A stretch of 48,442 nucleotides of DNA, filler included, from Jimgerdemannia flammicorona (lineage: Eukaryota): NCBI GenBank assembly GCA_003990765.1. It is 2 parts of 2 records of this genome, joined end to end, with 100 filler letters (N's around TTAATTAATTAA, not from the genome) between each part and the next. Parts side by side here need not be neighbours in the genome. Positions count along the whole stretch, not along the records: positions 1 to 24,176 come from RBNJ01001012.1; 1 more part is not named here. One strand, written 5' to 3'. A model generated the notes under the pieces. The model was given only the letters and a program-made list of their open reading frames with translations. It did no database searches and was not told the DNA's origin. This document shows, in pieces, positions 3,729-43,372 of the stretch. Numbering within the stretch: position 1 is the stretch's first letter; each line of letters starts with the position of its first letter. A program made the position numbers and the translations under genes.

Positions 3729-4020
3729 TTAGCACTTATCACACCCTTTGACAAATTGGCACAGGTCTTCTTCTATGAGGAAGATCTTGCCAGTATAATT
3801 AGGGTCAATTACTCCTCCTTCAACTGAGATTTTGCTTTTGGCCAGACTGCTCCTGGTCTTGATAATTCTGGCATAGTTTTCTGGCAGCTTGACTCCAATT
3901 CCAGTGCCAAGTAGGGTGGTGGTCTGTGGTTCAAGGGTAGTATCTTGAATGCCGGCAAGGTCCATTCCTATGGCTCCTTCAGTCTTGTATTCTGAGATCT
4001 TAGCTTTAGGGTAAAACTTC
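3729..4020 (-). pseudogene. Retrotransposon dUTPase remnant joined by deletion to the integrase zinc-binding region
   Basis: MDLAGIQDTTLEPQTTTLLGTGI..IKTRSSLAKSKISVEGGVIDPNYTGKIFL continues directly as IEEDLCQFVKGCDKC. Confidence 0.88.
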
Positions 4021-6245
4021 TTGATCTTGAGGATAATATCTGATTCTTATTCCTCCTTGTCATCACTATCAGCCTGAAGCTCTGGGGGCTAGTCATCTTC
4101 TTCAGCTTTCTTTTTTGCTTTGGCAGCTTCTTGCTTGTGTTTCTGTTAGTAGATTTTCCTAACTTCACTGATACAGGACCAGCAGTCATTCAGGTATTCA
4201 GAGCAGTACATCCTAGTGCCATAGGGGCATCTTCCTTGAGGGGCATAGCTATTGATGATCTTGTTGTATCACTGCTCATCTGTGAGCTTGGGTGTCTTGT
4301 TCTTGTTCTTGTTCACCAAGTATATGAAGACCTCTGTATCCTCTTCATCTCCTTCCTCTATGTCTGATAGGACTCCTTTGTGGATATTGATAGAGACTTG
4401 TACCTTTCTTCCTCTATAGTTGATCTGCATCTTCTGGACATTAAGGTCAATGATAGCCTTGGCCTTATGAAGCCATTGGTTGCCAATGAGGATGTCATAG
4501 TTGGTGGTACTTGTGACAATCACATCTACTGGAATGGTAGCTCCTTTTATCTTGATAGAGACTTCTCAGATTTTTCCAAGGGGGGTAGCTCGTATACCAT
4601 CTGCTGTAATATAGATCATCTTGGTAGACTCTTCAATGTCCCAACCTAGGCAGTCAATTGCCTTTTTGCTCATAAGGTATCCTCTAGCACTAGTATCAAT
4701 GATAGCATCAAAGATACAGTCTTCAATCTGACATGAGGTATAGACTGATATCTTGTACTAGTCTTCGGATTCTTCATCTGAGTTTTCAGATTCTTCCTAT
4801 GCATTGTGAGCTTCTACAATCTTATACTCTTGATTCTTGGCAGTAGTTGCAAGTCCTACTCTCAACTGCTGTCTGAAGGCAGGGACTTTAGCTAGCTGTC
4901 CAAAGGTAGCATTGACCTTCTGCTCCTTGAGGTCCTTGTAGATATCATACTGATGGATCTTGGTCTTGTGTAGCTTCTGTTCCTTCTGGCTCTCACTTTC
5001 TTCTGAGACTGGAGTGGTGTCTTCAATAATTTGGCAGGCAGCTTCATCTAACTCCATATCTTAATCAATCTCCTTAGGTTGAGTCTTGCTTTGAATAGTG
5101 ATAGCTGGGGTCTTCTTTGGTCTTCCAACTGGCTTACTGTTGCTCTTCCTGTCATAGGGCTTGGACTGGGTTCTGGTACCTTCAGTAGCAGGGTAGAATT
5201 TGAGCTCCTCATAGTATTCTTCATCATCAGTGTCACCAATCTCCTCAATGACAACTATATTGATTTGTTCTCTGGTTCTGCTAGCATTGCTTAGTTGGAC
5301 TTTGTGTCTTGTTTTGGTTATGCAATTCTTTGCATAGTGGCCTTCTTCTCTACATCTAAAGCATGTAATATTGCATTCTTCTGTAGCAGCTACAAATCTC
5401 TACACTGGTCTCCTGTTGGTGCTTCAGACTTCTCTAATAACATCACTAAGGTGTACAGTCATCTTGGCAAACTACTTGGTGAGTTCCTCCACTGGGTCAG
5501 CTTTGGCTGTCTTGGGGGTAGGTGGGGATATTTGTCTGTTTACAACTATGGCAGATATAATACTAGTTGGCTTTGATGGCTCCATCTTGATACCAGTTAT
5601 TTTCTCTATTGAGTATTTGGTAGAGAGTCTAGCAGTCTAATATCTCTATACAAAGACCACTTTCTGATCAAGAGTCAGTACAGCTGGGGTAGACCAGATT
5701 GCTAGGGCAATTTCAGGGTGAACTCCTTTAAGGAAGGTTGAATCTGCTATTTGTTCCTTGAGGTGGTCATCATAGTCAGCCAGGACAATCTGATAGCAGA
5801 TTTGGGTATAGAATGAGTTGGGATCTTTACTAAGTCCCTAGCAGATAGTATTAAGTTGATCCTTGAGAGCTTGCTTGATCTCTTCAATATAATATGTTGT
5901 TCTGAGGAAGGCCTTCATGTTGGCAAGTTTGGCTGTACTATTATCAGCAATAGTGACTGTATTGAACTTGTCTCTGGCAGGTCCTCTGAGGCTGACTGAT
6001 AGAAGGACCAATTGAGCATCCACACCAAGGGCTTGTACAGTAGTGAATTGTTCAAAGTCTTCAATGAAGGTCAGGATTGACTCTTCAGTAGTATATCTAT
6101 AGAATATAGGGGGATGCATTTCCATCTTATCTTGAATTCTTGCAGGGATGACTCTTGTAGTCAGGGTAGTTATTGTGGGGATTGTTCATTTTTTAGCTTG
6201 AAAGTGAGGGATTTATCTTGAATCACCAGCCAATGGGCACCAAGT

Positions 6246-7857
6246 TGTCACATAGTGGTTGCTAAGTCCTTCAAATATGCCAGATTCTCTTCAAGGTATA
6301 TCTCTTAGACTAACTCAAGTTTGTTATAAGTAAGTTCTTATTGGAGTGCCTTCCCAAGGTCTTATAGTTCTCAAACTTTTTATCTTTAACTGTCTTGTTA
6401 TCTCTTAGATTGCTTGCAAGAAAGTGTGTATAAGTGAACTGAAACTGACTTTATTTCAGAGGAAATAAGAGGGATATTTATACAAAATATAATTCAATGG
6501 TTGCTAAGATATAAAGCTAAATATAAATTCCAATAATTAAAATAAAATGCTAGGACAGAAAAAACTACTAAGTTCTAGGGTTGGTACTGATGGTTGTACA
6601 GGTTTAGGATGCTGATATAATTCAGTATCATATCAGAATACTAGTGCTGGCATTATTTAGTGTTACATCAAATGTCAGTGCTGGGACAATTTCATGTTAC
6701 CTCAGAATGCTGGTGCTGGTATTATTCAGTGTAACAAGGAACTTAGAGCAGAATGTTCAGAACTATGGGGGCTTCATCCTTATTATCAGAGGTCAGGATA
6801 TCTTTAAAGGAGATGAGGTCTATGAACATTTTGTCAAGGTCATGTAGGTCATGCATTTTGCATGCTTTGAGTATCTCATGTATATCACATATCTCATATA
6901 TGTCGAAGTCATGTGGGATGATGTCATTGCTGATGATGTCATCATGTTTGGTGGTAGTAAGAATAAGGAGATCTGGAGCTCTCTAGTCTATGAGATTCTC
7001 TTCTACAAAATAGAGAACAAATGTGGGGTCTTGGGGAGGTCTAATCTGGATGTTTGGGTCTTGGAATACTGAGATCAATTCTTACAAGAATTGGTCTGGG
7101 TTGTCCTGAAGAATAGAATGCCAGAAGTCTTCTACTTTATCACTATTGAGGGTGATAGTGAACTGGGCTTCTATAGCCACCCTGGCTTCTAGTATATTGA
7201 TATGGTGGGATGACAGGTCTCTGAAATCTGAGACTCTAACATACTCCAAGTTGGGGATCAACCATGGTATATGCCTAAAGATCTGATGGATCTTCTTAGC
7301 TATTCTTATTTTATATATATCCATGGGAGTGGTATCTTGTAGCTCTTGAGTACTGGCCTGTGGAAACTCCCAGTAGAGGAGGTTTCCTATTTCATACTCC
7401 TACCACATTTGGAGGCATTCGGTAGCAATAGTGATCCTTGTTTCTATTTTACAGCAGTAGAGGATATAGTGATAAGGGTTACCAGTACCCAGGTTAACAC
7501 TAGGAGTCCTTCTTGAGTGGGTCCTCATAGCTCTTCTGATGTCTTGAAATATTCTTTTTTCAACTGAGGTGTCTTGGTGATTCCTTGATCTTGAGGTTTG
7601 GTGGACAGTAGACATTTCATTTATAGTGAGTCTTTGGACTATTTTGAGATTAGTGGGTCTTATTAGTTACTGTTACTGCAGTTTCTTGATCCTTCTTTTA
7701 TATTCCTCAGAGTGCTTATACTGTGGTCACAATTACTTACAGTTGGTTATCATTGCTCATCTCATATACCATATGATCTTCTTGTGCTCCAATCTGGTGG
7801 CTTACAAGAAAAGACTATCTCCTGTACTGATGTCATCATTCTGGGGTCACTATTACA
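6246..7857 (-). repeat. 5' LTR of Gypsy A (1612 bp), containing an ORF remnant
   Basis: TG...CA ends, adjacent PBS, ATAT flank at 7858-7861; homologous to 1557-2476 and 18915-20431. Confidence 0.93.
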
Positions 7858-10624
7858 ATATATAGGAATATTAATAAACTCTCAGATATCTTCATAAATA
7901 TACTATATACTTTAGATATAAGTAAGAACCTCTTCTCAATAGACCAGATAATGGCTCAAGAAGATAAAGGAGTAAATATACAACTAAATAATATAATAGT
8001 AATCAATCTAAAGAATAATAAAGAGTTAATATATGTATATATTGAAAAAGTAGAACCTATATATAATTGATAATATACTAAGTAGTATATTATCTGCATA
8101 TTCTGCAATGATCAGAGAGGATCTCTGGTATATATAATACAAATACTTAGAACACATTAGCAAGATAAGCCTAGAACAGATGATAAGGAGTAGTTTAGCT
8201 AAACTATATATTTCTAAATTTCTTATAATAGATGTATAGCAAATAAGACTTTCTGGTGATCTTTTCAGAAATGGATAAAATGAGTAGTTAGCATTTTTAA
8301 CATAATACATATAGATATCTGTAGTCTTATACAAATGGCAACATACTCTGAGAAGAAATATTTTATTACTTTTATTGATAATTATACTCACAAAACCTAT
8401 ATACTTCTTTATAATAAAAAATGAGATATTCAAAAATTCTGAGAATTTAAAGTAACTATGGAGAATGAAATAGAATATAATATATAGATCTTATACTCAG
8501 ATAATAGTAAGAAATATATCAATAAAGCCTTTAGATACTTCTTAAAAAAGTATGATATTCAATACTCTATTATATATCTGAACAGAATTATATAGCAGAA
8601 TGCTTTAATTGAATAGTAGTAAAGATGGCTTAAATAATAATAAATATGACTAGCTTTATACTCCTTTTGAATTGAGACAGTGAATATAGTGATATATATC
8701 TAAAATTATTATATTTTTCAAGCTCTAAGCAAGGAATTCAGTAATAATCAGTAATCTAGAAATGATAGTGATTTTATCTCTGAAGAATTATAGAGTAGAT
8801 CTTAGTCCAATATCTCACATCTATAGATATTTGGAAGCAAGGCTTACATTCTGAATAAAGGCAGCAATAAAGACAAATTCAAGTCTAAGGCAGATAAGTA
8901 TATATTTCTTAAATATAATAGAGCAGTATATAGATTATAGAACTTATAAAAATATTATATAGTTATCTCTCATGATATTCAATTTAAGAAAACAAAGCAG
9001 GAAATTTATATAAAAATTTCTATCTTTATTAACCTAACAGTATAGCTAGTAAAACCTATACTAGTACTAGTGTAATATATATATATCAATAAGGCTATCA
9101 GAGCTAAGAATTATAGAAATTATAGATAAAGATAATGATGAGAATACTTTTCTGAAAGGTAAAAAAAAGTATAAATCTAGACTATAAAATAAAGTTGAAG
9201 TAGATTTAGAAGATTATTGAGATCAATCTAAGACATTTTATTATAAACATTATGTAAACTATATCTATGAGTATATATAGTAATGACTAGTGAGCTAGAA
9301 AACTACAATATATACCCAGATAATAAGAAAGAGTAGAAAAAGGCTATAAATGAGAAATATAATTTACTCATCAAGAATAATATATAAGATTTAGTCTCTC
9401 TTTCAGTGAATCAATAAGCAATAGAATCTTACTAGATATATAAAGTTAAATATAATAATAATAATAATATAGAGTAGTATAAGACTCAATTTGTGGCAAA
9501 GGAGTATTCACAAGGATATAGTATAGACTACAATAAGACCTTTTTCCTAATATTCAAACTTACTTCACTTAGAATACTTCTTGTAATCAGAGCTAAATAT
9601 AATTACAAAATTCACCAAATAGATATTAAGATAGCTTTCTTGAACAACAATATAGATACAGAGCTATATATTTATCAACCACAAGGATAAGAACTATATA
9701 ATGATAGAAATGAGCTTATATATAAACTATATAAAGGTCTCTATAGTATAAAATAAGTAGTAAGGCTATAGAACTGAAAAATCAACAAATATCTCTTAGA
9801 TAATAGATTTAAGTATTGTGAGGATAATTTATATATATACCTGATATATATATATTCTCAAGAATAATATACTTAAGAATCTAGATCAACAATATTATTT
9901 AGATCAGAATAGTAAATAAGATTAATAATGTAAAGATAATACTATATCAGAAATTCAAAATAACAGATATAGATAATGTGTCTTATATTCTTAGAATATT
10001 AATTATATATAATAAGTACAAGTATACCATATATTTATCACAAGTTATATATATTTAGACTATAATTTATATTAAATAGTAATCAAGTATATTTTCAGAT
10101 ATATTAAAGATATAGTATATTGTATACTCAGTTTGGATGATGATAAGAGATAAAGCAGGAGTAGTACAATAAGGCTATCTAGCATATATAATATAAACTG
10201 GGCTGGAGATCTTGATGATCAGTACTCTATAACTAAATATATCTTTAAAATTAGTGAAAATAGAGCTATTTCATAGTAAATACATAAGAAATCTTTGGTG
10301 GTAATATTATCTATACAAGCAGAGTATTAAGTATTATTTATGATAATAAAGGAAGCCATATAGCTTTAGAAACTATTAAAGAAGTTGAGATTTTCTTAAG
10401 AATAGTACTCTATGCTACTCTAATAAGACAATCAATCTATGATTACTATAGTAAAGAATCCTATATATTACATAGAATAAAGCATATTGATATATAGTAT
10501 TATTTTATATGAGAATATATGAAAAATAGTATTATATACTTAAAATACATCTCAATAGAGTATATGATAGTAGAATTATTGACTAAAGTTCTTTTAAAGA
10601 CTAAGTTTGATTTATATATAAAAG
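7858..10624 (+). mobile_element. Highly eroded Ty1/Copia pol (pre-integrase, IN, RT, RNase H)
   Basis: Degenerate motifs in Copia order: ILYSDNSKKYI (~8487; cf. LRSDNGGEY), EQNYIAECFN (cf. PEQNGVAER), YKTQFVAKEYSQGYSIDYNKTF..IHQIDIKIAFLNNNIDTELYIYQPQG (RT, 9478-9690), STQAEY, DNQS and KHIDI (RNase H, ~10310-10495). Confidence 0.88.
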
Positions 10625-11206
10625 TAGTGCTCTAAATAAGTCAATTTAATCCAGATTGAATTCAGATTAGATTCAGATTAAATACCATCTAGATCAATTT
10701 GAATCAACTATTATTTTGATTTCCAAATTAGATAATTATATATTTACATCAATAACTTAATAAATAATCATCTAATTTTGATGATCTTAGTATTATTTGA
10801 ATGCTCTTAATAAGACCTTTCTAATGATACTAAGAATATTAAAATCGGATTATATATTGTTAAGCTATTAAGAAAAACATTCTTATAAAAAAATTTCTAA
10901 AATTAGCAAGTTAAATAATTTTCAAAATTGGTGAGTCAGACATTTTCCTTAATAACTCAGTAATATATAATTTAATTTCAATATTCTTGATATCATTAGA
11001 AAGGCCTTATTAAGAACCTTCAAATAATATCAAGATTATTAAAATTGGATAATTATTTATCAAGTTATTGATATAAATATTTAATTATCTAATTTGGAAA
11101 TCAAAACAATAGTTGATTCAAATCAATCTGAATGGAATTTGAATTCCATCTGAGTTGATCTAGATGAGATTTGAATCTGATCCAGATTAGCTTATTTAGA
11201 GTACTA
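10625..11206. mobile_element. Fold-back MITE with ~250-bp imperfect terminal inverted repeats, probably hAT superfamily
   Basis: TAGTGCTCTAAATAAG...CTTATTTAGAGTACTA; arms pair to about 10880/10940. Left flank TATAAAAG (10617-10624) versus right flank TATAAAAT once Gypsy B is removed (17987-17994), a 7/8 match to an 8-bp TSD. Confidence 0.8.
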
Positions 11207-11207
11207 T

Positions 11208-11703
11208 TGTGATAGTCAATCCAAATTAGTAATATGAATCAGAGAAATTAGACATTTGATCATGATACCTGAATCCAATTCCCAATATAGCTTAGCCTTA
11301 CAAATAGCAGTCATATTTTACAAGTGTAGAAACTTTAACATTTGTAGAAACTTTGGCAACTGTAGAAATTCTACAGATATAAATCCTTCATAATCATAAA
11401 GATTCTGGCAGATGTAGAAAATTTACACTTACTGACTCACAGAAAATGTAGTCATAACTTAGCCACCTTATAGCTAGCAAAACTTGTATAAATAACCCAG
11501 TATCTTAGAGTGAATAAACCCCAGATCGAAATAGTTCAAAGCAAAGAGATAGCAAAGAAACTAGTAAGCCTACGGGCAGATATACTTCAAACTCACCCAC
11601 TCTCCCCTGCAACTTCAAAAGACTCTGTGAGAGTCAGAACAGTCAAGTTTTTAAGATACAGAAATCCAACATACTTTTAAGAGTAAGTATCCACTATGTT
11701 ACA
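11208..11703 (+). repeat. 5' LTR of Gypsy B
   Basis: TGTGA...TGTTACA; TATA-like TGTATAAATA at 11485-11494 and AATAAA at 11513-11518. Confidence 0.96.
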
Positions 11704-11706
11704 ACT

Positions 11707-11720
11707 TGGTGCCCATTGGC
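11707..11720 (+). promoter_or_regulatory. Primer-binding site TGGTGCCCATTGGC (primer tRNA not identified)
   Basis: Starts with TGG 3 nt after the LTR; identical in element A at 6229-6242 (minus). Confidence 0.75.
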
Positions 11721-11759
11721 TAGTAATTTAAGACGAATTCCTCACTTTCAAGCTGAACA

Positions 11760-13620
11760 ATGAACAATTGCCACTACCCAAACAACTACACAAACTGAGC
11801 CCCAATACTCAGATAAGATGAATATGAGACCACCAGTATTTCATGGATATACCTCAGATGAATCAATCATCACCTTCATTGATAATTTCAAGCAGTATAC
11901 TGCTGTAAGGACCCTGACAGTAGTACAGCAAGTAGTCCTTATACCCTTTAGCCTATGAGGCCCTGCAAGAGCAGCATTCACAGCTACAAACTATGTAGGA
12001 AATGATACCAATACTACACTGATAGCATAGAAGACCTGGCTTCGAAACACCTACTACATAGATGAGATCAAGTAAGCTCTGAAGGATCAGCTCAATACAA
12101 TATACCAAGGAATGAGCAAAGATCCAAACACATTCTACACCAGAATCTGATATCAGATAATCCTTGCAGATTATGCCAATGCTATCTGAGACCAAGTAGC
12201 CAAAGCAACCTTCATGAAAGAAGTCCACCCAGAGATAGCCATGGCCATCTGCTCATCACCAGTGATTCTGGATCTACCACAGAAGGTCACCTATGCTCAG
12301 CGATACTAGATAGCCAGATATCCACAAGACCATATAATGGAAAGAGTCACAGGAGTCAAAATTGAAGCACCCAAGGCAATCAGTGTGATCTCTACCACAA
12401 TGATCAATCGAAACACACCTCAGCCAAAAGCTACAGAGCAGCAAAAGAACAGTGACCCTATGGAGGAACTTGCCAAAAGGTTTGCCGAAATGACTGCCCA
12501 CCTGAGAGATGTGGTAGAGAAAATTCGAGGAAGAGACCGCCACCCTGTTCAGAAGTTTGCCACCACCTCAGACAAGAAGAAAGATACCTGCTACAGCTGT
12601 AGAGAAGAAGGCCACTACTCATATGAATGTATGAGTGAAACCAAGCACAAGGCCCAACCAAGCAATGCTATTAGAAATAAGAAACAGACCAATACAATCA
12701 TCTTTGAAGAAATTGGAGAATCTGATGAAGAGGAATGAGAGGCTTATCCTGCTCAGACCACTAAGAAGAATGTTCACAAAGAACCCTACAAGAGACCACC
12801 AGGAAGACCCAAGAAGAACCCAGTGGAAAAGCAGATGGAAACTGCCACAGAAAGCCAAGCCAAAGAGATGGACCAAGATATGGAGCTGGAGCAAGCAGTT
12901 CAAGATATTATCTGAGGAACCACTCCAGCCAGTAAAGGAGAAAAAGAAAAGAAGCTTTGCAAGACCAAGACCTTCAAGTATGATATCTTCAAAGACCTCA
13001 GTCAACAAAAGGTCAATGCAACCTTTGTCAGCTTACAGAAATCCTGATATTCAGATAGCAAATGAGGTTTGGACTTACCAAAACAACCAAGGAACAAGGA
13101 TGGAAGATAACCGAGGCCAATAATGTTCAAGAAGACTCAAGAGAAAAAAGTGAGGACAATTGCAAAACCTCTGCTTATGCAACATGCCAAATCGAAGATA
13201 GAATCTTTGAAGCCATCATTGATACTGGAGCAGGAGGATGTCTCCTAGCAAGAAGGCAGCAGATCACCTAGGTTGGGATGTGGAAGAAGCAACTAAGCTG
13301 GTATTTGTTACAGCTGATGGTACAAGAGCCACACCTCTGGGAAAAATCTGAGATGTTCTCATTAAGATTGGAGGAGCAACTATCCCAGTAGATATAATTG
13401 TAACCAACACTACCAACTATGACATCCTCATCAGCAATCAATGGCTTCACAAAGCCAAGGCAGTAATTGATCTCAATGCTCAGAAGATGCAGATCACCTA
13501 CTGGGAACAGAAGATACAAATTCCCATCAATGTCAACAAAGGAGTCCTGCTCGACATGGAGAAAGAAGAGAGTGAGCAAGAGGAAGCTTATATAGTGATT
13601 ACTCCAAAAAAAAAAGAAAG
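11760..13620 (+). pseudogene. Gypsy B gag (CCHC knuckle) and aspartic protease
   Basis: MNN..MRPPVFHGY start, CX2CX4HX4C at ~12589-12630, DTGA at ~13221, DILI.NQWL. Contains stops and small frameshifts. Confidence 0.9.
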
Positions 13621-13869
13621 TTGGATGGATGAGTGAAGAAGAATGGTACAAGAAGATTGCAGAAGGCTATGCACCACAAGGAGTCTGTCCCCATAGGATC
13701 AAGATGTATTGTATGGAGCACACTAATGATTGCTATCAGTGCACCATCGGAATCAAGAAGATTCATGAGGAAAGAAGACAGAAAGCCCTTGAGAAATAGG
13801 TCAGAGAAGAAGAGAAGAAGGAAGATGATGAACCACCAGCCCTCCTGAAGGACAGTGATGATGAAGAAG

Positions 13870-14300
13870 AAATCAAGGTCAAGATTTGAAAGATCCACCC
13901 TAATACAGTCTTGCCAGAATATAAGTCAGAAAATGCAGCCAGAATGGACATTGCTATAGTAGAAGAGACTATACTAGAACCCCAGACAACCACCCTACTT
14001 GCAACTGGACTGGAGATGACTATTCCAAAGGATCATGTTGGGATTCTCAAGACAAGAAGCAGCCTGGCTAGAAGCAAAATCACAATCAAAGGAGGAGTCA
14101 TCAATTTAGACTATACTGGAGAAATTCTACTCATTGCTAGGAATCACAATCCTACAATTCCATTTCCAGTCAAGAAGAAGGACTGATTGGCACAAATGCT
14201 GATCTTTCCAATCCTACAACCAAAGATCATAGAAGTTAAGAAGCTGGAGGAAACAAAAAGAGGAAAAAAAGGATTTGGATCTACAAGAAGAGGAGTATTC
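13870..14300 (+). pseudogene. dUTPase domain of Gypsy B, between protease and RT
   Basis: AARMDI, RSSLA, GGVINLDYTGEI, *LAQML and TKRGKKGFGST correspond to trimeric dUTPase motifs I-V; in frame with RT. Confidence 0.93.
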
Positions 14301-15809
14301 GCCAGCACCAAGATCACTGAACTCAAGCATAAGAAGGAGGAAAACACAAGCAAGTACAGCTACACCATCAGAAATGAATTTCCACTCAAGAAAGAACTCA
14401 AGAAAATACTCCATGAATTTGAAGATGTCCTTACCACAGATTTCAAAGATATCAAAGGAAAGACCCCACACTACTATCATGAAGTAGATACTGGAGACAC
14501 TGAACTAATTTATCAGAAGGCAAGACCTGTCCCGCCAGCCTACCAAGAATGGCTCAGAGAAGAAATCAAGCAGATGGAAGAAGTCAGCATCATTAAAGAA
14601 GCCAGCAGCCCCTGGTCCTCATCTATTGTACTAGTCCCAAAAAAAGGCAGTAAGCCTGGAGAATTCGCCCCAAGACTCTGTGTCGACTACAGAAAGCTCA
14701 ACATGGTTACCAAGAAGGATCGCCAACCACTGCCCCTCATCAATGATATCCTTATAACACTGGGAGACAAAGCACAGTACTATAGCACTTTGGACTTATA
14801 CTCAGGATTCCACCAAATCGGACTCACAGATATGGCAAGTGAAAAGTCAGCTTTCATTACCCCAGATGAAACCTACATCTACCTACAAATGCCATTTGGA
14901 ATGTGCAATACACCAGCAAGTTTCCAGCGAATGATGAACAAAATCTTCCACTATGACATAAGAAGATGGATGATGGTCTATGTTGATGATGTAATCATCT
15001 ACAGCCAGACACCAGAATAACACCTACAGTACATCTGGTAGATAATGGAAAGACTGAGAGAGCATGGCCTATACATTAAGCCCAAGAAATGTAAATTCGC
15101 AGAAATCAAGATCTTCTATCTTGGTCACATTATCAACTAAGATGGAACATACATGGACCCTCTCAAGATACAAGCAGTGGCAGCATATCTAAGACCCATC
15201 ACTGTTACAGAAGCCCAAGCCTTCATAGGACTTGCCTCCTATTATTGTAGATTTATTAGAAGATTTTCTAATATTGTGGGACCAATCTATGAACTTAACA
15301 AGAAGGATACCAAGTTCCAGTAGACTGGCAGATAACAAAAAGCATTTGATGAACTCAAGGTTAGACTGACCCAGGCACCCATCTTCAGAAGACCTGACTG
15401 GACTCAAGAATTCATCCTACAGACTAATGCAAGTGCACAAGGACTAGGAGCAGTCTTAGCTCAAAAGAAAGATAAAGTGGAGTATGTCATTGCATACCTC
15501 AGCTGCAGAACCTGAGGAGCTAAAAAAGAATATGAATCCTATAAGTTGGAATGCCTTGCAGTCATCTGGGCCATAGAAAAGTTCCACTACTACTTGGCTG
15601 GAAGACACTTCACCATTCAAACAGACCACTCAGCTCTCATCTGGCTACTGACAACTGGACAACCCAAAGGAATCTATGCCAGATAGATAATGAAGTTGCA
15701 AGCTTATGATGTAACCATTGTACACCACTCTGGAAAAACCAATGCCAATGTAGATACCCTCTCACAGACACCCCGAACTACCTCCAACCAACAAATCAAT
15801 CATGAATAA
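14301..15809 (+). pseudogene. Reverse transcriptase and RNase H of Gypsy B
   Basis: SPWSS.IVLVPKK, RLCVDYRKLN, LDLYSGFHQI, MPFGMCN.PASFQ, YVDD, QTNAS, LECLAVIWAIEKF, QTDHSAL, NVDTLS. Frame ends at TAA 15807-15809. Confidence 0.95.
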
Positions 15810-17004
15810 GGAGCTCTACTACAGAATTATCACATACCTGGGATAGCAAAAAATGCCCCAATATCTGGAAGAATGGACACAAATGATTATCAACAGAACA
15901 TGGAAACAATTCGAAACTGATGGAGAAATACTGAAGAAAGAAAAACTACTAGTCATACCAGAATACAAGAAGGAGTAAGCAATGAAATCAGTATATGAAC
16001 TTGGCCATCTAGGAGGAACAAATACTTATAACAAGGCAAGAAGAACAATATGGTAGCCAGAGATAGAGGAAGATATCAGACAATTCATCAAGACCTGCGA
16101 TAAATGCCAGAAACAGAAACAAGACCAATGAAATCAAGCTCTAGGATCAGCAAACATAGAACCAGTACTATTTGCCCACATTGCAATAGATGTAATTGGT
16201 CCTCTACTCTTGACTTTGACTGGCAACCAATATATCATTGTCATCGTAGACCTTTTTACAAAATGGATAGAAGCAGGACTCCTCATAGAAGCCAATGCAC
16301 AGTCAATCACCAATTTCTTCCACAAAGAAATCATCTGCTGATTCAAGACCCCATTGCAAGTAACTACAGATAGAGGAATGGAATTTGTAAATCAGTTCTT
16401 CGAAGTTCTCTACAAGAAGTACAAGATCCAGTATATTCAGACCACAGCATATCACCCTCAAGGAAATGGATAAGTAGAAAGAACCAACAAGACTCTCAAG
16501 AATATTATTGCCAAGATCTGCGATAACTATGAGAACTGGGATTACTATCTGCCAATAGCATTATCTGCTCTCCAGGATATCTGATCACAAAGTACCCACT
16601 TTACTCCTCAAGAAATACTGTTCAGAGAAGAATGATCTCAGGGAACCCTATTATCTAATAGAGATGCTGTATGGAAATATGTGGACACGGAAATATAGAG
16701 ACTACACCAAATCAGGAAGAAGACTGAGGATTACATAACCAAGGTGCAGATACTACAATGGAGGAATGTGGAAAAAACCCACAAACCTCTGGAGATTATC
16801 AAGATAGGAGATAAAGTTCTAGTATATCGGAATATGGTAGAAGCTTCATGGTCACAAAAACTGAAGCCCAAGTGGAAAGGACCTTACCTTGTGCAAGATA
16901 TAAAAGGGACCACCTTTTGGCTATAAAAACTCTCAGGTACAATTATCTCTACTACTATCTACTGAAACAGACTCAAGAAGTACCATGATCAGCCAATGAA
17001 GTAA
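15802..17004 (+). pseudogene. Integrase of Gypsy B, with its own ATG in a different frame from RT-RH
   Basis: MNKELYYRIITYL..GHLGG..W*PEIEEDIRQFIKTCDKCQ..IAIDVIGPL..VDLFTKW..TDRGMEF..YHPQGNG..WKGPY. No chromodomain recognised. Confidence 0.93.
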
Positions 17005-17510
17005 TACAGCTACCCTCAAGATCACCAGCACTGCCCAACAAGCCATAGAGAGACAATGGTGTTCTACTGAACCACCAACAATGGAGGAATCCTTTGATAG
17101 TATACAAAGTATAGTCCAGACCCACCTATCATGAATTTTACACTTCAAAGCCTACCAGACATGAACTGAGTTTCAGGAATACTTCAAGCTAAGACAACTA
17201 CTGAATTCAAATCCAAAGATGGGGAAAGAAGACTGGATTAAAGAATGTCAGCTCACCTACATTCAGATCATGATCACTAAGAGAGTACACAAATTATTCA
17301 AAGATGATGAGTTAGCTCTAGCTCATCTTCGAGAAGTAATCCCAGGAGATTTCAGACAGGTTAGGAGACAACATTGGAAGAATGTGATGGTGCAAATTGC
17401 ACAGTACAAGGAGATACAGATCATAGAAGCCTGGGAGTTTGAGTGAATAGGATACTTTAGGGATGAATCACCTATTTAGGAGAAAGTTGTGACAGTCAAT
17501 CCAAATTAGT
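16985..17510 (+). pseudogene. Accessory ORF3 of Gypsy B (env position), function unknown
   Basis: One frame with few stops: ..TEFQEYFKLRQLLNSNPKMGKEDWIKECQLTYIQIMITKRVHKLFKDDELALAHLREVIPGDFRQVRRQHW..; may extend through the PPT into the LTR. Confidence 0.7.
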
Positions 17511-17983
17511 AACATGAATCAGGGGAATTAGACATTTGATCATGGTACCTGAATCCAATTCCCAATATAGCTTAGCCTTACAAATAGCAGTTATATTTTA
17601 TAAGTATAGAAACTTTAACATTCATAGAAACTTTGACAACTGTAGAAATTCTACAGATATAAATCCTTCACAATCATAAAGATTCTAGCAGATGTAGAGA
17701 ATTTATACTTACTGATTTACAGAAAACATAGCCATAACTTAGCCACCTTATAGCTAGCAAAACTTGTATAAATAACCCAGTATCTTAGAGTGAATAAACC
17801 TTAGATCGAAATAGTTCAAAGCAAAGAGATAGCAAAGGAACCAGTAAGCCTGTGAGCAGATATACTTCAAACTCACCCACTCTCCCCTGCAACTTCAAAA
17901 GACTCTGCGAGAGTTAGAACGGTCAAGTTTTCAAGATACAGAAATCTGATGTACTTTCAAGAGTAAGCGTCCACTATGTTACA
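17488..17983 (+). repeat. 3' LTR of Gypsy B
   Basis: Ungapped match to 11208-11703, about 38 substitutions by manual count. Confidence 0.96.
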
Positions 17984-18179
17984 CTATATAAAATGAATAA
18001 AACTTATAAATAACTCTATACTAATGAGCAATTCTATACTAATCAATAGAAACTATATATCAGTAAGTAGTAAGCAATAGTAATAATAACAATATAGATA
18101 TAATAGGAAGTTTTTTAGAGTATTAAAAGTATTTTATTATATCTTATATATATATATATCAATATTACTTATATTTCTT

Positions 18180-18914
18180 TATTTGTAAATAGATTTGGAT
18201 TTATATTATAGATAATTTCTTTTGTTAATATTGCTCAGAATTTCCATTTTTCACTACTCTATTTATCTATTTTTATACTTATAAGCAGAGAATTTATATC
18301 TTTTTCAGTCATCTAAATAGTACTCAGTTAGTTATAATTTATGTAGTTCTTTTTATTTATATATTCTGAAATATATCTCATTGAGCAAGAGTATTAAAAT
18401 ATTTTAGTTATAGCAACTTAATATATAGTAATACAGTCTGATTATATTATTACTATAAACATTATAATATATGTAAAAGTATATATAAGTTAGTATTAAT
18501 AAACAATACTCTTTTTCTCTCTACTCTTCCCAAGTATTTTATAATAATTTTATTATAGTCTATCTTGTCTAGATATCTTAGTTTAATTTGAATATATATT
18601 TGAGTAATAGTAGTTATTCATTATTTAGCTTAAAAGTGAGAGATTTATTTTAAATACTAGTTAATAAATACTAAGTTGTAATATAGTAGATATATACTAG
18701 TAGAAGTATAGTAAATTTTTTTATTTTAAATACTTGATCTTTTTTAACTTCTCAGAGTTCTCAGATATAGAGATGGGTGAGTTAGAAGTATATCTGCTTA
18801 CAGGCTTACTAGTTTTTTATCTCTTTGCTTAAACTATTTTAATCTGAGATTTATTTACTTTAGATATTAAAAATATTTATATAAATTTACTAGCTATATA
18901 TAGTAGCTATATAT
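18180..18914 (-). mobile_element. Relic of a B-related Gypsy element: eroded gag start, PBS and part of the 5' LTR (18677-18914), interrupted by the solo A-LTR
   Basis: Reverse complement of 18770-18900 matches the B LTR (AAGCAAAGAGATA..CTAGTAAGCCTGTAAGCAGATATACTTC.AACTCACCCA). 18620-18676 matches the B leader (CTCACTTT.AAGCT..ATGAA). Confidence 0.75.
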
Positions 18915-19134
18915 TGTAATGGTGACTCCAGAATGATGACATTAAGCCTTTCCTTATAAGCTGTACAAGAAGATTATATGGCATATGAGATAAGTAATGA
19001 TGACCAACTGTGAGTCATTGTGACTATAGTACAAGCATTCTGAAGAATATAAAAGAAGGATCAAGGAACTGCAGTAGCAGCAATCAACAAGAACCACCAA
19101 TCCCAAAATAGCTCAAAGACTTACTACAAATAAA

Positions 19135-19953
19135 ATATCTGCTGCCTGCCAAACCTCAAGGTCAAGAAACCACCAAGGTACCTCAGTCAAAGAAAGAATA
19201 TTCCAAGACATCAGAAGAGCCATGGAGACCTACCCAAGAAGGACTCCTAGTGTCAACCTGAGTACTGCAGACCCTTATCACTTTATTCTCTACCATTATG
19301 AAATGGAAATAAGGATCACCATTGCTATTGAATGCCTCCAAATGTGATAGGAGTATGAAATAGAAAATCTCCTCTACCAGGTATTCTCATAGACCAATAC
19401 TCAAGAGCTACAAGATGCCACTTTCATGGATATATGTGAAACATAGACAGCTAAGAAGATCCATCAGATCTTCAGGCATGCACTATGGTTAATCCCCAAC
19501 TTGGAGTATGTTAGAGTCTCAGACTTCAGAGACCTATCATCCTGCCATATCAATGTACTAGAAGCCAGGGTGGCTACAGAAGCCCAGTCCACTATTATCC
19601 TCAATAGTGAAGAAGTAGAAGACTTCTGGCACTCTATCCTCCAGGACAATCCAGATCAATTTCTACAAGGATTGATCTCAGTATTCCAAGGCCCAAGCAT
19701 CCAGGTTAGACCTCCCCAAGACCTCACATTTGTTTTCTATTTTGTGGAAGAGAACCTCATAGACTGGAGAGCTCCAGATCTCCTTGTTCCCAATTTCCCT
19801 GCCACAGCTGAACATGATGACATTATTGGCGATAATATCATCCCACGTGACATATGTGAAATGTATGACCTACATAACGAGTTTGCAGATCTCATCTCCT
19901 TCAGTAATGATGATGATGATGAAGCCCCCATGGTCCTGAACTTTCTGCTTTAA
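19135..19953 (+). pseudogene. LTR-encoded ORF of ~272 codons in family A; also present at minus 7615 downward and minus 2234 downward
   Basis: Same frame in three LTR copies with stops at different codons. ATG is present in two copies (ATA here). The last 150 codons are open in this copy. Confidence 0.8.
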
Positions 19954-19970
19954 GTTCTTTGTTATACTGG

Positions 19971-20085
19971 ATAATGCCAGCACCGGTATTCTCATATAAC
20001 ACTGAATAATGCCAGCACTGGTATTCTCATATAATACTGAATAATACTAGTACTGGTATTTGATGTAACACTAAATAATGCCAGC
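19971..20085 (+). repeat. ~35-bp tandem repeat in LTR-A (ATAATGCCAGCACTGGTATTCTCATATAACACTGA), about 3.5 copies, upstream of the TATA-like box at 20190-20199
   Basis: Directly visible; the counterpart lies at ~6610-6735 on minus. Confidence 0.85.
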
Positions 20086-20567
20086 ATCCTGAACCTGTAC
20101 AACCATCAGTGCCAACCCTGGAACTTAGTAGTTTTAGTTATTGGAATTTATATTTAGCTTTATATCTTAGCAACCATTGAATTATATTTTGTATAAATAC
20201 CTCTCTTATTTCCTCTGAAATAAAGTCAGTCAAGTTTACCTACACACACTTCCTTACAAGCAATCTAAGAGATAACAAGACAGTTAAAGATAAGAAGTTT
20301 GAGAACTATAAGACCTTGAGAAGGCACTCCAATAAGAACTTGCTTATAATAAACTTGAGTTAGTCTAAGAGATATACATACCTTGAAGAGAATCTGACGT
20401 ATTTAAAGGACTCAGTAACCACTACTTGACAATATATAGTAGCTAATATAAGACTTCTTTTTCTATAAGTTATTTTATATAGTTAAGAGATTGGTATATT
20501 TGTAAAATATATATAGATAAGAGATCAGTATATCTGAGAGATTCATACAGTTATACTTTTTATATGA

Positions 20568-21750
20568 TTTTTTTTTTTTTTAATAGACTCAATGTCTCAT
20601 GGATTTTTATTAGAAGAGAACCTAGACTATATAGGCCAAAACTCTCCCCCACCACTCATCAAGCACTGCCTCTCCATTAACCTATACAAGCTATTGTCCA
20701 GTAGCTCAACTATGCCAGGTGCAGTAGGACCAATATTGGCCCACATCTCATTCTGTGTACCATGCTCTTTCTACCACTAGGAGAAAACTCAGCCATATGC
20801 TAATAACTGAAAGCATATGCCTGAGAATCCAACATATGTATAAGGCTATGCCCAAGATGAATAGAATAGCTCATGCTACCCTAAAGAGAATAATAGACAA
20901 AGAAAAAACTCTCATCAAAGTACAACATAGTGGGTAGGGCCTGGTTCTCTCAGTTGAGATGAGTAAAGAACTTACACATGAGGTGGGAGGAGACCCCCAA
21001 TACTCTACTACTCAAGTCTGTGGGCCTTGATTACATTGCTATATTAGCTCCTAGTTCCAGTTGAGTGTAGCCAAGACACCTGAAATAGGTAGCCTTAGGC
21101 CCCCTGACCTCTCTGATAACTGGGGTCCAATCTGCCAAATCATCAAAAGAAGCTGAGAGTGACACCTATTACCTAACTATGCTATATCAATCAAAAGGCC
21201 CCACTGAAGCAGCACTCACTCCAGTCCTGATAACTGCCCCCAGTCTGGTACTCTACTGATTCATCATTATCATCCTTCCTCCTATCTGTGATGACTATCT
21301 CCCCTCCTATCCTGACAATATCTGAAAAGCAGTCACCTATACCAGAACTGGGCTTGCCAGGAAGCTCACCAAAGCCAGAGGGCCCCACCATAGATACTGA
21401 GAACCTGTAGGTAGCCTATACTGAGCACTAGATATCCAAGGTTGGCTGACTCTCTATATAGTCTGAGATACATCAAGACAGTATCTTGTTGGTGACAGCA
21501 AAAGGAAAAAGGTGCTACACCAAAATGGATATACTCTAGATGTAGCCAAAGATACCAGAAACTGTGAAAAAGTAGAGGAAATACTGATCAGATACTAATA
21601 AAGAGGTAACTTATCACTATTATCTCTCTTTCACTGCTCTACAACAGGTACAGCAAACCAACTTAAGATAGAGGAGGTTATAATTATAGAAAGTAGACTT
21701 GGAAGGTTATCTACCAAACTATTGTGACCAGTAAAGTAGTAGAGAAAGAG
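20568..21750 (-). mobile_element. CpG-depleted repeat with poly(A) end; possible non-LTR retroelement fragment
   Basis: T-run at 20568-20581, with AATAAA on minus ~25 nt upstream; no CpG; no diagnostic protein motif recognised. Confidence 0.35.
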
Positions 21751-22328
21751 AGGCTGTATTTTTTATATGATCATACAAATTGTCCAACTGAGAGATTGAG
21801 TGACTGCTAAATTATAATACTATACTATATCATTTAGATCAACTATTATAATACTATATATAATAAAATATCTATTTTTTAATTTTTATTTCTAATTTAG
21901 ATTATATATTATTTAGAATTAACTTTAAACTTTTAAATAAAAAATTATTTAATATATTTTAATTTTATTTATTATATTTATAAAATATTAATATTAATTA
22001 ATTTTTAAATATATATTTAATATATTTTATTGGCTTAACTTATTTAATAATTTATATTTATAAAAGTAAAATTGAAACTCAAAATTATAATAAATTAAAG
22101 TTATAAATATAAAAATTTAAAAAAGATAATTATATCTTTAAAGAAACTTTAAATATTTAAATAATTAAAAAAGTTCTCATTATCTTCAATATATTAATTG
22201 ATAAAATATCAAATAATAAAAATATATTTCAAAATAATGCACATTATTCTATTACTGAACAAGATTTTACATTTCTTTGTCTTTCTAATGTAACAACTTA
22301 TTTCATATTTCAGTCTCAACTATTTACA

Positions 22329-23171
22329 TCACTTCCTTCCCCTTACTGCTCCCGCTCCACCTTTCATCTTAAGTTCACTGTCCTGTAACTCCGACTTTCC
22401 ACTGCTATAATAAGTAAGCATACACTCAAGCTGCCACTTGCGCCAGATCTCCTCGGAAGTGAACCCGAGCGTCTTCCACTCCAGATCTTTCTCCTTCTCC
22501 TTTTCCTTCGTCTCCTCTGCATTGGTTTCCATCTTTGTCTCCGCCTCACCATCTTCTGACTCGGACTCGTATCGCGAAGTCAGCTCGTCGCGGTTGTTCG
22601 TTACGAGTTCGTTCACAATCTGCCCCGCGCGCGTTGCCAAGTTGTCATGCTTCTTGCGGAGGGTGTGCCAATGCGAGAGGCGCTTGCGAAGTATGTCATC
22701 ATCCTCGAGGTTGGTAGCTGTAGCTGACACGGAACCGAGGATGCCGCCGCGGTCATTGGAGGGTTCGCCCAGCTCCTGCTCAATGGATTTACGGGTTTGC
22801 TCTTCCATTCTCTCAATCTCGGGTATAAGCTTTGTGCGCAAGAGGATGCCCAGTACGTGGGTCTCCTGCTCGGTCATGGTGGGGTTATGCGGGTGCAGCA
22901 TGATTTTGGGCAAGGTTGAGCCGCCAGTGCCGGTAGAGGCAGACATATAGCCGTAGAAGTCCTCGGAAAGAGAGGCAAATTTTGCGGTGAGGGTATTGAA
23001 CTTGTTGAGCAGGTCAGGCCAATTGAAAGGGAACTTTGGGTCGTTGAGGTAAAGTAGGTGGGAGGAGAAGGAGTCTTGGAGCGAGTTGAGCTTTGCACGC
23101 AGAACCTCCAACTCAGAAACGGTGTGCGGGTCAAGACGGTTCTGCATTTGACTTTGGATTTGGGAATTCAT
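22329..23171 (-). CDS. MED8: Mediator of RNA polymerase II transcription subunit 8 (single exon, ~280 aa)
   Basis: ELEVLRAKLNSLQDS..FNWPDLLNKFNTL..LHP..LGILLRTKLIPEIE match the Med8 family (WP and LLRTKL.PE). First ATG at 23171. Confidence 0.88.
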   Translation of the reverse strand: MNSQIQSQMQNRLDPHTVSELEVLRAKLNSLQDSFSSHLLYLNDPKFPFNWPDLLNKFNTLTAKFASLSEDFYGYMSASTGTGGSTLPKIMLHPHNPTMTEQETHVLGILLRTKLIPEIERMEEQTRKSIEQELGEPSNDRGGILGSVSATATNLEDDDILRKRLSHWHTLRKKHDNLATRAGQIVNELVTNNRDELTSRYESESEDGEAETKMETNAEETKEKEKEKDLEWKTLGFTSEEIWRKWQLECMLTYYSSGKSELQDSELKMKGGAGAVRGRK

Positions 23172-23312
23172 GGCGAGTGAGATGCGCAACAAAGGAACGA
23201 GTAAGAGGAACTGCAGAAACGAACCGAGCTGTGACTGTCGTCATTGTTTGGGCGTGACGTCATCCAACTTCTTGATTTAATTCCAACAGTCGAACAGTCC
23301 TTGGAACCTAAC
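23172..23312. promoter_or_regulatory. 141-bp bidirectional promoter region with a CRE-type palindrome TGACGTCA (23255-23262)
   Basis: Divergent ATGs at 23171 (minus) and 23313 (plus). Confidence 0.6.
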
Positions 23313-24068
23313 ATGGCTCCTCCAACAATCAAGCAGATCATTTACAGAACCTTCACAAGAAACCATAGCTTGACTCTCAAAGTTGATGCTGTGCGGTATC
23401 TGGAGGACTTGGTGGAAGAAGGCGAAACCCCACCTGACCAAGTTGAAGGCGTGCTCGAGAAGATCGTGACCGCTTACAGGAAGCAGGATGGTATGTAAAC
23501 CTACCTCAATTTTACTGAGTAGCGCCCAATGATTGAAGAACTGACATCATCCTGCATATGCTTTAGTTGATGCCGCCGTCATCGTCGACCGCGCCACCCT
23601 CGAGAAAGCTGTCAATAGCCTCTCGGTTATCCACGCGCCTATCGACACTCCGTTTGCCCGAAACCTGGAAAATGGTGATACGGATGCCATGGAAGAAGAT
23701 GTGGATGCAGTTACTGCTGAGCAACAATTGGATGTCACACGGCATTTTCACGTTATCGACGCGTTCAGTATGCCAAAATGGAGATATACCTATGATCAGA
23801 AAAGCTTTGTCCGGTACGATCGCTGCTTCAAGGATGTGTTTTTATGACTTATTTGTATTAAAATTAACTACCTACTTGTTCTCATGACATCCACCTTATA
23901 TCGATGTGATGATACAGCGTAACAGAAGATCCGAAACTCCTTGCCTCTGCCGCCGCCAAGGGTGATGTTCATCGAGCTCGCTTTGACATGCTCCGACAAC
24001 GGATATTGCGCAACGAGAACTTTTGTCCTCCAGCATTTCAAACCACGGACCGCGACTCTTATTTGAAG
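23313..24068 (+). CDS. DPB2: DNA polymerase epsilon subunit B, 5' part (exons 23313-23490, 23567-23813, 23918-24068), cut off at the gap
   Basis: IIYRTFTRNHSLTLKVDAVRYL, FHVIDAFSMPKWRY, RARFDMLRQRILRNENF; GT-AG introns keep the frame. Confidence 0.9.
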
Positions 24069-24115: not shown

Positions 24116-24176
<61 letters not shown>

Positions 24177-24276
24177 NNNNNNNNNNNNNNNNNNNNNNNN
24201 NNNNNNNNNNNNNNNNNNNNTTAATTAATTAANNNNNNNNNNNNNNNNNNNNNNNNNNNNNNNNNNNNNNNNNNNN
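24177..24276. other. Artificial 100-bp contig linker (N44-TTAATTAATTAA-N44)
   Basis: TTAATTAATTAA stops all six frames and sits centrally in Ns; different, incomplete genes lie on each side. Confidence 0.92.
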
Positions 24277-24299
24277 TTTTTTTTGTTTTGTTCACATAG

Positions 24300-24945
24300 G
24301 CATTGAAAGAAGTGCACAAGAAATTTTATGACTTATACGACTCCAAGAAGAACCAAGAATCGTCTTCGCGAACCGAGGATTCGGTCGATCAGCCGGACGT
24401 GAAGGTATGCATCATGTTTATATCTCTTGGTTGCCGTGTCACTATCAATCCATTTTCATCATCGCCCTGACTCATCCTAACTGGTCGAATCGTCTTTTCG
24501 ACACTCTCGAAATCCATACAACCCCAGGTACTGATCCCTCTCATGAAACGCAATGTTCTCCAAGGTGTCAACATCCTCTTTACGAGCGTCATACCGCTGG
24601 GCCAGGACCCGCGCAAGTCTGAGATTTGGCGGCTGGCGACGCAGTTTGGTGCCGAGTGTTCGCTCGAGCTTTCGAGTAGGGTCACGCATGTGGTCGCGGG
24701 GAAGGTGAGGATCGTCTTGAGGGTTGAGGGAGTGACTGATATTTATTAGGCAAACTTTGGCTGACATTTCTCCCATTGTGTGTATGGTTTCGATTTGTAG
24801 AAAGGTACAGCGAAAGTCAATGCTGCAAGACGGCGGCAAACGATTAATATCGTGCGGACAGAATGGTACGTATGCATGTATTACTATTTCGTTTGGACTG
24901 CGTATTGCGTTGTAATCGTTACTGAAATGCGTGCGTGCGTATGTT

Positions 24946-40988: not shown

Positions 40989-40993
<5 letters not shown>

Positions 40994-41036
<43 letters not shown>

Positions 41037-43214: not shown

Positions 43215-43254
43215 AGTCTATAAGAAGGGAGCGCGCAAAAGGGAGAAAGAAGGT

Positions 43255-43275
43255 AAGGGTAATGAGTGGAAGCAC

Positions 43276-43372
<97 letters not shown>

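Follow-up and report, generated by a model that had tools for sequence, protein, structure and literature searches.

We analysed a 48,442-nucleotide stretch of the Jimgerdemannia flammicorona genome (hereafter the window), which is composed of parts of two records joined by a 100-letter filler, positions 1-24,176 being derived from RBNJ01001012.1. The window consists of a repeat domain on the left and a gene-rich half on the right, and its central subject is a long terminal repeat (LTR) retrotransposon in the repeat domain, element A (Table 1). An original prediction, made from the sequence alone, proposed that the LTRs of this element had been altered by hypermutation resembling repeat-induced point mutation (RIP). 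We find that the LTRs of element A, and those of a second element nearby, have diverged almost exclusively by C-to-T changes on both strands, that these changes depend on the base 3' of the cytosine, and that they are confined to repeats. The VPS28 exon (37556-37828) matches a J. flammicorona protein at 100% identity, one of Endogone sp. at 88% and the Mucorales proteins listed in the protein comparison at 66-79%. On the basis of these identities we assign the host to J. flammicorona, an ectomycorrhizal member of the Endogonales, Mucoromycota, the phylum in which the original prediction would have found such a process notable. The genome size is given as 240 Mb (PMC7928374) and the repeat content as more than 77% (PMC10386755). 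Statements from the literature refer, here and below, to the available extracts of the cited sources.

Element A can be classified from its sequence as a dead Ty3/Gypsy-type (Metaviridae) LTR retrotransposon of the nuclear genome. The LTRs begin with TG and end with CA, a 4-bp target-site duplication flanks the element, and the domains follow the canonical order, with a weak match for integrase. The TGG at 11707, after the 5' LTR, resembles the start of a primer-binding site, and a purine run, AGGAGAAAG, stands just before the 3' LTR. The limits predicted originally, with two LTRs of 496 bp, proved to be exact. Unlike the usual Ty3/Gypsy arrangement, element A has an additional dUTPase between the protease and the reverse transcriptase. 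Given that its closest database relatives (P0037-P0040) carry the same domain, the dUTPase is a lineage trait of this group. A uracil-excluding enzyme carried by a retroelement in a cytosine-deaminating genome may merit attention.

Alignment of the frames of element A to six homologues (P0037-P0040, P0060 and P0134; 31-62% identity) revealed 28 in-frame stops and about four frame changes in the internal region. Ten of these stops occupy positions at which the homologues agree on the residue: four replace tryptophan (TAG at 12307, 15321, 15684 and 16054), three replace arginine (TGA, from CGA, at 11956, 12148 and 14184) and three replace glutamine (TAA or TAG at 12073, 13056 and 15333). Every one of the ten is a single C>T or G>A step away from a sense codon, and the other 18 are not assignable to a residue at this level of identity. 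Stops of the TGG>TAG/TGA and CAR>TAR type had been predicted; this description is upheld for the assignable tryptophan stops, in the TAG form, and for the glutamine stops, does not extend to the unassignable majority, and has to be widened to include CGA>TGA. The best protein-search matches were 60-70% identical, and no copy close enough to polarise the coding changes of element A was found among them.

Table 1. Features of the window, with positions counted along the whole stretch.
Feature	Position	Strand	Remarks
CpG-depleted repeat domain	1-22352		51 CpG, versus 1531 in 22353-48442
LTR B1 (3' LTR of element B)	1558-2476	-	919 bp; self-comparison
Internal region of element B	2477-6938	-	self-BLAST and purine/pyrimidine-coded BLAST; CpG observed/expected 0.03
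LTR B2 (5' LTR of element B)	6939-7857	-	919 bp; self-comparison
AT-rich block left of element A	7858-11207		GC 0.23; insertion site of element A
Target-site duplication CTAT, left	11204-11207	+	same four bases after the 3' LTR
5' LTR of element A	11208-11703	+	496 bp, TG...CA
Internal region of element A	11704-17487	+	dead Ty3/Gypsy-type retrotransposon (classified from sequence)
gag zinc knuckle	12310-12735	+	Pfam match on open frame
Protease (aspartic)	13352-13633	+	Pfam match on open frame
dUTPase	13890-14183 (and 14187-14285)	+	Pfam PF00692, E = 4e-15
Reverse transcriptase	14187-15017	+	Pfam match on open frame
RNase H	15336-15683	+	Pfam match on open frame
Integrase, weak	16342-16470	+	18.2 bits, under the Pfam cut-off
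3' LTR of element A	17488-17983	+	496 bp, TG...CA
Target-site duplication CTAT, right	17984-17987	+	matches left copy
AT-rich block right of element A	17984-18906		GC 0.196
Older family-A LTR end and leader relic	18558-18898	-	inverted, heavily AT-shifted
B3, truncated third family-B copy	18907-20432	+	LTR to ~19830 and ~640 bp internal; outgroup
Med8 exon	22332-23240	-	gene-rich half; CpG at expectation
DNA polymerase epsilon subunit 2 N-terminus	23235-23495		CpG at expectation
BRCT protein exon	24471-24746		CpG at expectation
Nse2-type zinc finger	32057-32287	-	CpG at expectation
VPS28	37101-37828		CpG at expectation
CpG-free, G-poor island between genes	40938-42139		1.2 kb; purine/pyrimidine-coded match to 9-390
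GATA factor	45514-46212	-	CpG at expectation
Swc3	47213-48181	-	CpG at expectation

The second element, element B, has gag, protease, dUTPase and integrase regions related to those of element A, and a purine tract, AGGAGGAAGA, adjoins its LTR B1. Neither self-BLAST nor purine/pyrimidine-coded BLAST detected a counterpart of the segment of element A at 14101-16063, which holds the reverse transcriptase and RNase H, and element B looks like a non-autonomous deletion derivative. Its sequence at 6180-6289, about 650 bp inside the 5' LTR, resembles the end of LTR A and the adjoining leader, which suggests that element B is of chimeric origin.

The LTRs of element A align over 496 bp without gaps and differ by 38 transitions, with no transversions and no indels; about 38 substitutions, all C/T or G/A, had been expected. 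LTRs B1 and B2, aligned over 919 columns, differ by 89 transitions, one transversion and no indels. Transitions therefore account for 127 of the 128 differences in the two pairs, with a single transversion in 1415 columns. Comparisons with the third copy, B3, gave transition to transversion counts of 111:7 for B1 and 124:8 for B2. Between the A and B families, which serve as an internal control, the counts were 417:291 and 173:123, a transition share of 0.59. The probability of observing 127 transitions among 128 differences is 4e-28 at that share, 2e-21 at a share of 2/3 and 2e-5 at a share of 0.9, and chance is excluded as the cause of the excess. When the sequences are coded as purines and pyrimidines, the identity of B1 to B2 rises from 90.2% to 99.9% and that of B1 to B3 from 84.7% to 99.2%.

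The changes are distributed over both LTRs and both strands. In pair A, the T or A state is found in the 5' LTR at 21 of the 38 sites (11 T, 10 A) and in the 3' LTR at 17 (11 T, 6 A). In pair B, T-for-C and A-for-G states number 18 and 17 in one LTR and 25 and 29 in the other (35 versus 54). We detected no strand-coordinated or copy-coordinated runs of mutations in either LTR pair. As the two LTRs of one element can diverge only once it has integrated, the changes post-date integration and affect both strands, and RNA editing and reverse-transcriptase errors are excluded as their source.

Sequence contexts were read by taking the C/G state as ancestral and by assigning TG/CA and CG/TA double differences to former CpG sites. 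The 38 changes of pair A then comprise 13 in CpG, 15 in CpA, 8 in CpC and 2 in CpT, in agreement with the predicted mixture of some CpG, many CpA/TpG and a few CpC or CpT sites. Expressed per copy-site, the rates in LTR A are 0.36 for CpG (13/36), 0.12 for CpA (15/122), 0.12 for CpC (8/68) and 0.014 for CpT (2/146), and those in LTR B are 0.42 (10/24), 0.16 (46/296), 0.12 (27/228) and 0.021 (6/290), respectively. The pooled counts are 23/60, 61/418, 35/296 and 8/436. CpA and CpC together differ from CpT in both pairs (Fisher P = 1e-4 for pair A and 2e-9 for pair B), and B1, B2 and B3, taken separately, have the same profile. The order of targets by the base 3' of the cytosine is G > A = C >> T: CpA is not special, CpC is hit equally, and the rate per site is about three times higher for CpG and about eight times lower for CpT. 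Neither LTR pair has a clear preference for the 5' neighbour, nor for CHG over CHH. Outside CpG lie 104 of the 127 transitions together with the one transversion, so that 104 of the 105 differences at non-CpG sites of both pairs are transitions (P = 2e-17 at a share of 2/3).

The AT-rich blocks on either side of element A corroborate this context independently, as their surviving cytosines stand mostly before T. Observed/expected ratios are 0.02 for CG, 0.84 for CA, 0.80 for CC and 1.51 for CT in the block at 7858-11207, and 0.00, 0.63, 0.45 and 1.75 in the block at 17984-18906, while all four are near 1 in genes. These blocks of 20-23% GC look like the result of the same process run to completion.

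Polarisation of pair B with B3 as the single outgroup copy yielded 67 GC>AT changes against 20 apparent AT>GC changes. The contexts of the former are CpA in 33 cases, CpC in 23, CpT in five and CpG in four, with two undetermined; the non-CpG excess, for which polarisation had been proposed as a refuting check, thus persists. The apparent AT>GC changes probably reflect C>T hits that the outgroup sustained in parallel at hot positions, because 19 of the 20 sit in a CpG, CpA or CpC context. For family A, comparison of the relic at 18558-18898 with LTR A and its leader gave 62 GC>AT and 13 AT>GC transitions as well as 18 transversions, and the GC content of the relic is 0.217, versus 0.377 in LTR A and leader. 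The alignment of 9-390 with part of the intergenic island (41190-41570), only 60% identical, was set aside for the assignment of direction.

As the original prediction of repeat targeting would have it, the depletion is limited to repeats: ratios of observed to expected CpG are 0.00-0.27 in segments of 1-22150 and 0.15 in 40900-42100, versus 0.94-1.10 in genes. The domain edge is sharp, with the first genic CpG at 22353, inside the Med8 reading frame, and the limits of the 1.2-kb intergenic island are equally abrupt. Since the non-coding parts of the gene region also retain CpG, the process is not a genome-wide mutation bias. The composite RIP index is negative in 18 of the 22 one-kilobase bins of 1-22000, including all those covering elements A and B, and is positive only in 9001-10000, 18001-19000, 20001-21000 and 21001-22000. 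Classical RIP thresholds are reached in bin 18001-19000, where TpA/ApT is 1.22, (CpA+TpG)/(ApC+GpT) is 0.73 and the composite index is +0.49. Screens based on such indices miss cases of this kind, in which the composite index is mostly negative though the LTR pairs differ by 99% transitions.

We also compared the element with the contigs of one soil-metagenome run, which contains 0.06 of the sampled words, by alignment at 80% likeness. The 1500 matching contigs (71 at 99% identity or more, 286 at 95-99%, 615 at 90-95% and 528 below 90%) indicate that many close copies of the element exist in the soil metagenome. The differing places comprise 740 transitions versus 92 transversions, and the transition excess holds across the family, at about the inter-copy level and lower than within the LTR pairs. 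Contexts were read from the best-supported 40 of the 832 differing places, 36 of which were covered by at least three contigs. A scan of the metagenome contigs with the reverse-transcriptase frame returned no relative, and an exact 30-base LTR stretch returned no match.

Several other features of the window accompany the elements. A diverged palindrome lies at about 10600-11230, in the AT-rich block left of element A; the two arms share 80% identity and differ by 44 transitions and 16 transversions, and the identity is 95% over 10678-11142 when purine/pyrimidine-coded. CTATAT-like sequence adjoins B2 (7858-7866), B3 (18898-18906) and A (11200-11207/17984-17992), which suggests an insertion preference for TATA-rich, already mutated DNA. 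Outside the LTR, ATATATAG is common to B2 and B3, and element A has CTAT / CTATATAAA. The intergenic island at 40938-42139, a distant relative of 9-390, opens with about 50 consecutive T residues; its plus strand is nearly free of G between about 41040 and 41800, a strand asymmetry that gives a GC skew of -0.50 for 41001-42000.

The gene-rich half spans 22332-48268, and all the recognisable exons there have the expected CpG. Near the BRCT-domain exon, the sequence at 24118-24290 contains a 59-base T run followed by two 44-N runs split by TTAATTAATTAA. The N stretch at 24177-24276 was read as an assembly gap and coincides with the filler joining the two records. Simple and tandem repeats occupy 43237-43695, including an A/T homopolymer of about 95 bases (approximately 43277-43371) and repeated units at 43364-43507 and 43543-43695 with 74% identity, and the surrounding AT skew is +0.33.

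Which process could produce such a pattern? DNA methyltransferases recognise their target by its 3' neighbour, whereas AID/APOBEC enzymes recognise theirs by the 5' neighbour. Here the 3' neighbour matters and the 5' neighbour hardly does. We favour, at about even confidence, a repeat-targeted and methyltransferase-linked deamination of cytosine that is RIP-like but not canonical RIP. The data support the original suggestion of a repeat-targeted C-to-T mutator or non-CG methylation. After integration, element A and the neighbouring repeats were hit at the DNA level on both strands, with cytosine converted to thymine almost to the exclusion of other changes and the action stopping sharply at repeat edges. 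DNMT1-family enzymes may methylate cytosine in repeat chromatin, and the modified cytosine would then deaminate. The enzyme set may comprise a CpG maintenance methyltransferase and the DIM-2-like enzyme reported for Endogonales. The closest parallel to such a RIP-like mutator without RID would be the C>T mutagenesis that Dim2 drives during mitosis in Zymoseptoria, and, run to completion, the mutator could turn elements of ~40-48% GC into blocks of 20-23% GC. The host and the spectrum of changes, with its direction, context and limitation to repeats, are established by the data, while the enzyme, a methylated intermediate and the timing are inferred.

The literature offers some context for this proposal. 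RID-1 is described from Pezizomycotina only, and DIM-2-like homologues from Endogonales and Glomeromycota (PMC9963178). DNMT5 and RID are described as lost in sister clades of arbuscular mycorrhizal fungi (PMC8298701). In Zymoseptoria with a functional Dim2, more than 95% of new mutations are C>T, located in methylated repeats and arising during mitosis (PMC8016269).

Several points weigh against the methyltransferase-linked process. The ratio of the CpG rate to transversions far exceeds that of mammalian passive decay of 5-methylcytosine (5mC); because of this, spontaneous deamination may not be fast enough, and the process may require an active step. The sample consists of one 48-kb window with two LTR pairs, one outgroup and few relics, plus one metagenome, and the direction of change rests on that one outgroup for family B and on one heavily mutated relic for family A. 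The private changes of the window copy in the metagenome comparison misfit the LTR profile: among the best-supported 40 of 832 places, the 25 private GC>AT changes fall in CpT (11), CpC (9), CpA (3) and CpG (2). We tentatively take them to be old differences between subfamilies. At 11521, all 24 aligned contigs and the 3' LTR have T and the 5' LTR has C, which marks the position as a hot site or as a genuine T>C change. For element B, the flanks revealed no clear target-site duplication. The assignment of the enzyme rests on one literature statement (PMC9963178). Neurospora DIM-2 is described as preferring CpT, the very site that is spared here, and early-diverging fungi are described as having almost undetectable 5mC (both PMC13297926).

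More tentatively, and with appreciably less confidence, we suggest that Endogonales may hold a RIP-like, repeat-directed mutator built on a DIM-2-like or other DNMT1-family enzyme, acting by the rule that C is hit before G, A or C and not before T. In that case, mutagenic defence of the genome would either be older than the divergence of Mucoromycota and Dikarya or have two origins, and kingdom-wide screens would have missed such a mutator through their reliance on CpA-based indices and k-mers.

The main rival is true RIP, that is, a premeiotic deamination that senses homology and acts in bursts on both copies of duplicated DNA, the LTRs of a single element among them, here with an enzyme other than RID. 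The nearly pure C:G>T:A spectrum, the similar load of both LTRs (21 versus 17, and 35 versus 54), pairs left at 85-92% identity, the classical thresholds passed by the oldest blocks (18001-19000) and a transition to transversion ratio far beyond that expected from passive decay would all accord with it. However, reports of RID are limited to Pezizomycotina (PMC9963178), and the order CpG > CpA = CpC >> CpT departs from the CpA, or CpA with CpT or CpG, described for RIP (PMC4352252). The pairs also lack the strand-coordinated runs that single rounds leave, although many rounds would erase them, and in a genome with more than 77% repeats (PMC10386755) such a defence failed to halt expansion. In this single window, repeats are hit and adjacent genes keep CpG observed/expected near 1; the agent may sense duplication, as true RIP does, or may instead methylate repeats in heterochromatin. 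We regard true RIP as unlikely.

Less probable still is the third explanation, an unrelated cytidine deaminase, AID/APOBEC-like or of another family, directed at unmethylated cytosine in the genomic DNA of repeats. It would account for changes that are exclusively C>T, affect both strands and occur in several contexts, CpC among them, and the dUTPase encoded by element A belongs to a type of activity that retroelements use against uracil in their own DNA. The specificity seen here resides in the 3' neighbour, though, and AID/APOBEC enzymes read the 5' side; moreover, the highest rate is at CpG, which suggests that the substrate is methylated.

Ordinary decay, in which methylation is limited to CpG, 5mC deaminates and the remaining differences are neutral, is very improbable. 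It would explain why the rate per copy is highest at CpG (0.36-0.42) and why CpG is almost gone from repeats and intact in genes, and CpG methylation of transposons is documented in Rhizophagus and Gigaspora (PMC8647823, PMC13443276). The depletion of CpG is indeed confined to repeats, but the transition excess is not limited to CpG, which contradicts decay at CpG only: the many non-CpG transitions come with a single transversion, in each pair CpT is hit eight times less often than CpA and CpC, and the relic blocks descend to ~20% GC with CpA and CpC depleted.

We give similarly little credence to an assembly artefact, whereby near-identical copies were collapsed or interleaved and the LTR differences are really differences between copies. 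The repeat content of more than 77% (PMC10386755), the two N runs at 24177-24276 and the many close copies in the soil metagenome make such errors conceivable. Nevertheless, the inter-copy comparisons are richer in transversions (111:7 and 124:8) than the LTR pairs (127:1), element A keeps an intact 4-bp target-site duplication, and a mosaic would still need a biological cause for the transition-only pattern, which is also found in an independent metagenome. Finally, although by our reasoning deamination of single-stranded minus-strand DNA or of plus-strand strong-stop DNA can in principle make LTRs unequal at integration, APOBEC-type editing of complementary DNA during reverse transcription is scarcely credible, as it predicts C>T changes alone for the 5' LTR and G>A changes alone for the 3' LTR and is contradicted by the near-equal presence of both kinds of change in each LTR of both elements, and the same signature occurs in relics too diverged for one round of replication.

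These findings bear on the dating of transposons. LTR divergence is 7.7% for element A and 9.8% for element B when all substitutions are counted and 0.07% when only transversions are (one in 1415 columns), which suggests that LTR dating is inflated by an order of magnitude or more, a figure that rests on the single transversion; the original prediction had anticipated such inflation. LTR dates and divergence landscapes of this 240-Mb genome (PMC7928374) with more than 77% repeats (PMC10386755) would be inflated likewise. The process would account for the presence of 20% GC blocks beside 48% GC genes in this genome, and gives the DIM-2-like methyltransferases of early-diverging fungi a role that can be tested.

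A study of Rhizophagus transposons states that RIP signatures went undetected in Gigaspora and Mucoromycotina (PMC8647823), and a kingdom-wide k-mer screen reported repeat-enriched mutation signatures in Ascomycota only (PMC12543289). Both statements would have to be qualified in the light of a clear signature, based on alignment, in a fungus of the Endogonales. Our literature search, whose reach did not include the Endogonaceae genome paper, returned no description of hypermutation by C>T changes in Jimgerdemannia or Endogonales. In the extracts of the fungal literature compared, we found no described precedent for CpC on a par with CpA combined with sparing of CpT.

The pattern shares features with several known systems. 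As in the RIP of Pezizomycotina (Neurospora crassa type), C:G>T:A changes affect both strands of repeats only and leave adjacent genes untouched, stop codons and AT-rich blocks are created, and the oldest blocks pass the index thresholds. The spectrum is that of canonical RIP (127 of 128 differences are transitions), but the preference for CpA is missing: CpG > CpA = CpC >> CpT is found instead, the young elements have negative composite indices, and the host belongs to Mucoromycota, whereas RID is reported only in Pezizomycotina (PMC9963178). In Zymoseptoria tritici, more than 95% of changes are likewise C>T in methylated transposon regions, depend on a DIM-2-class enzyme and need no meiosis (PMC8016269). 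However, more than 98% of those changes are at CpA and CpG is not mutated (PMC8016269), while in the window CpG has the highest rate and CpC matches CpA. This CpA mutagenesis and the signature of Tuber melanosporum are the nearest published patterns. Tuber melanosporum has a comparable large, transposon-rich mycorrhizal genome with transition-biased copies and a CpG and CpA signature, but it is an ascomycete with RID and Dim-2 homologues, and neither a CpC component nor sparing of CpT is described in the extract (PMC4352252).

Microbotryum and other Basidiomycota provide a further parallel, in that C>T changes at CpG are restricted to repeats and attributed to methylation and deamination without RID (PMC3318451, PMC4352252). 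That hypermutation, at TpCpG, is restricted to CpG (PMC3318451, PMC4352252), in contrast to the 104 of 127 transitions outside CpG in the window. Within Mucoromycota in the broad sense, Rhizophagus and Gigaspora have high CpG methylation of transposons and a bimodal methylation landscape, although the reports describe methylation and not a mutation spectrum (PMC8647823, PMC13443276). By analogy, the bimodal landscape of these arbuscular mycorrhizal fungi would fit the sharp alternation of CpG-depleted and CpG-normal domains that we observe in J. flammicorona.

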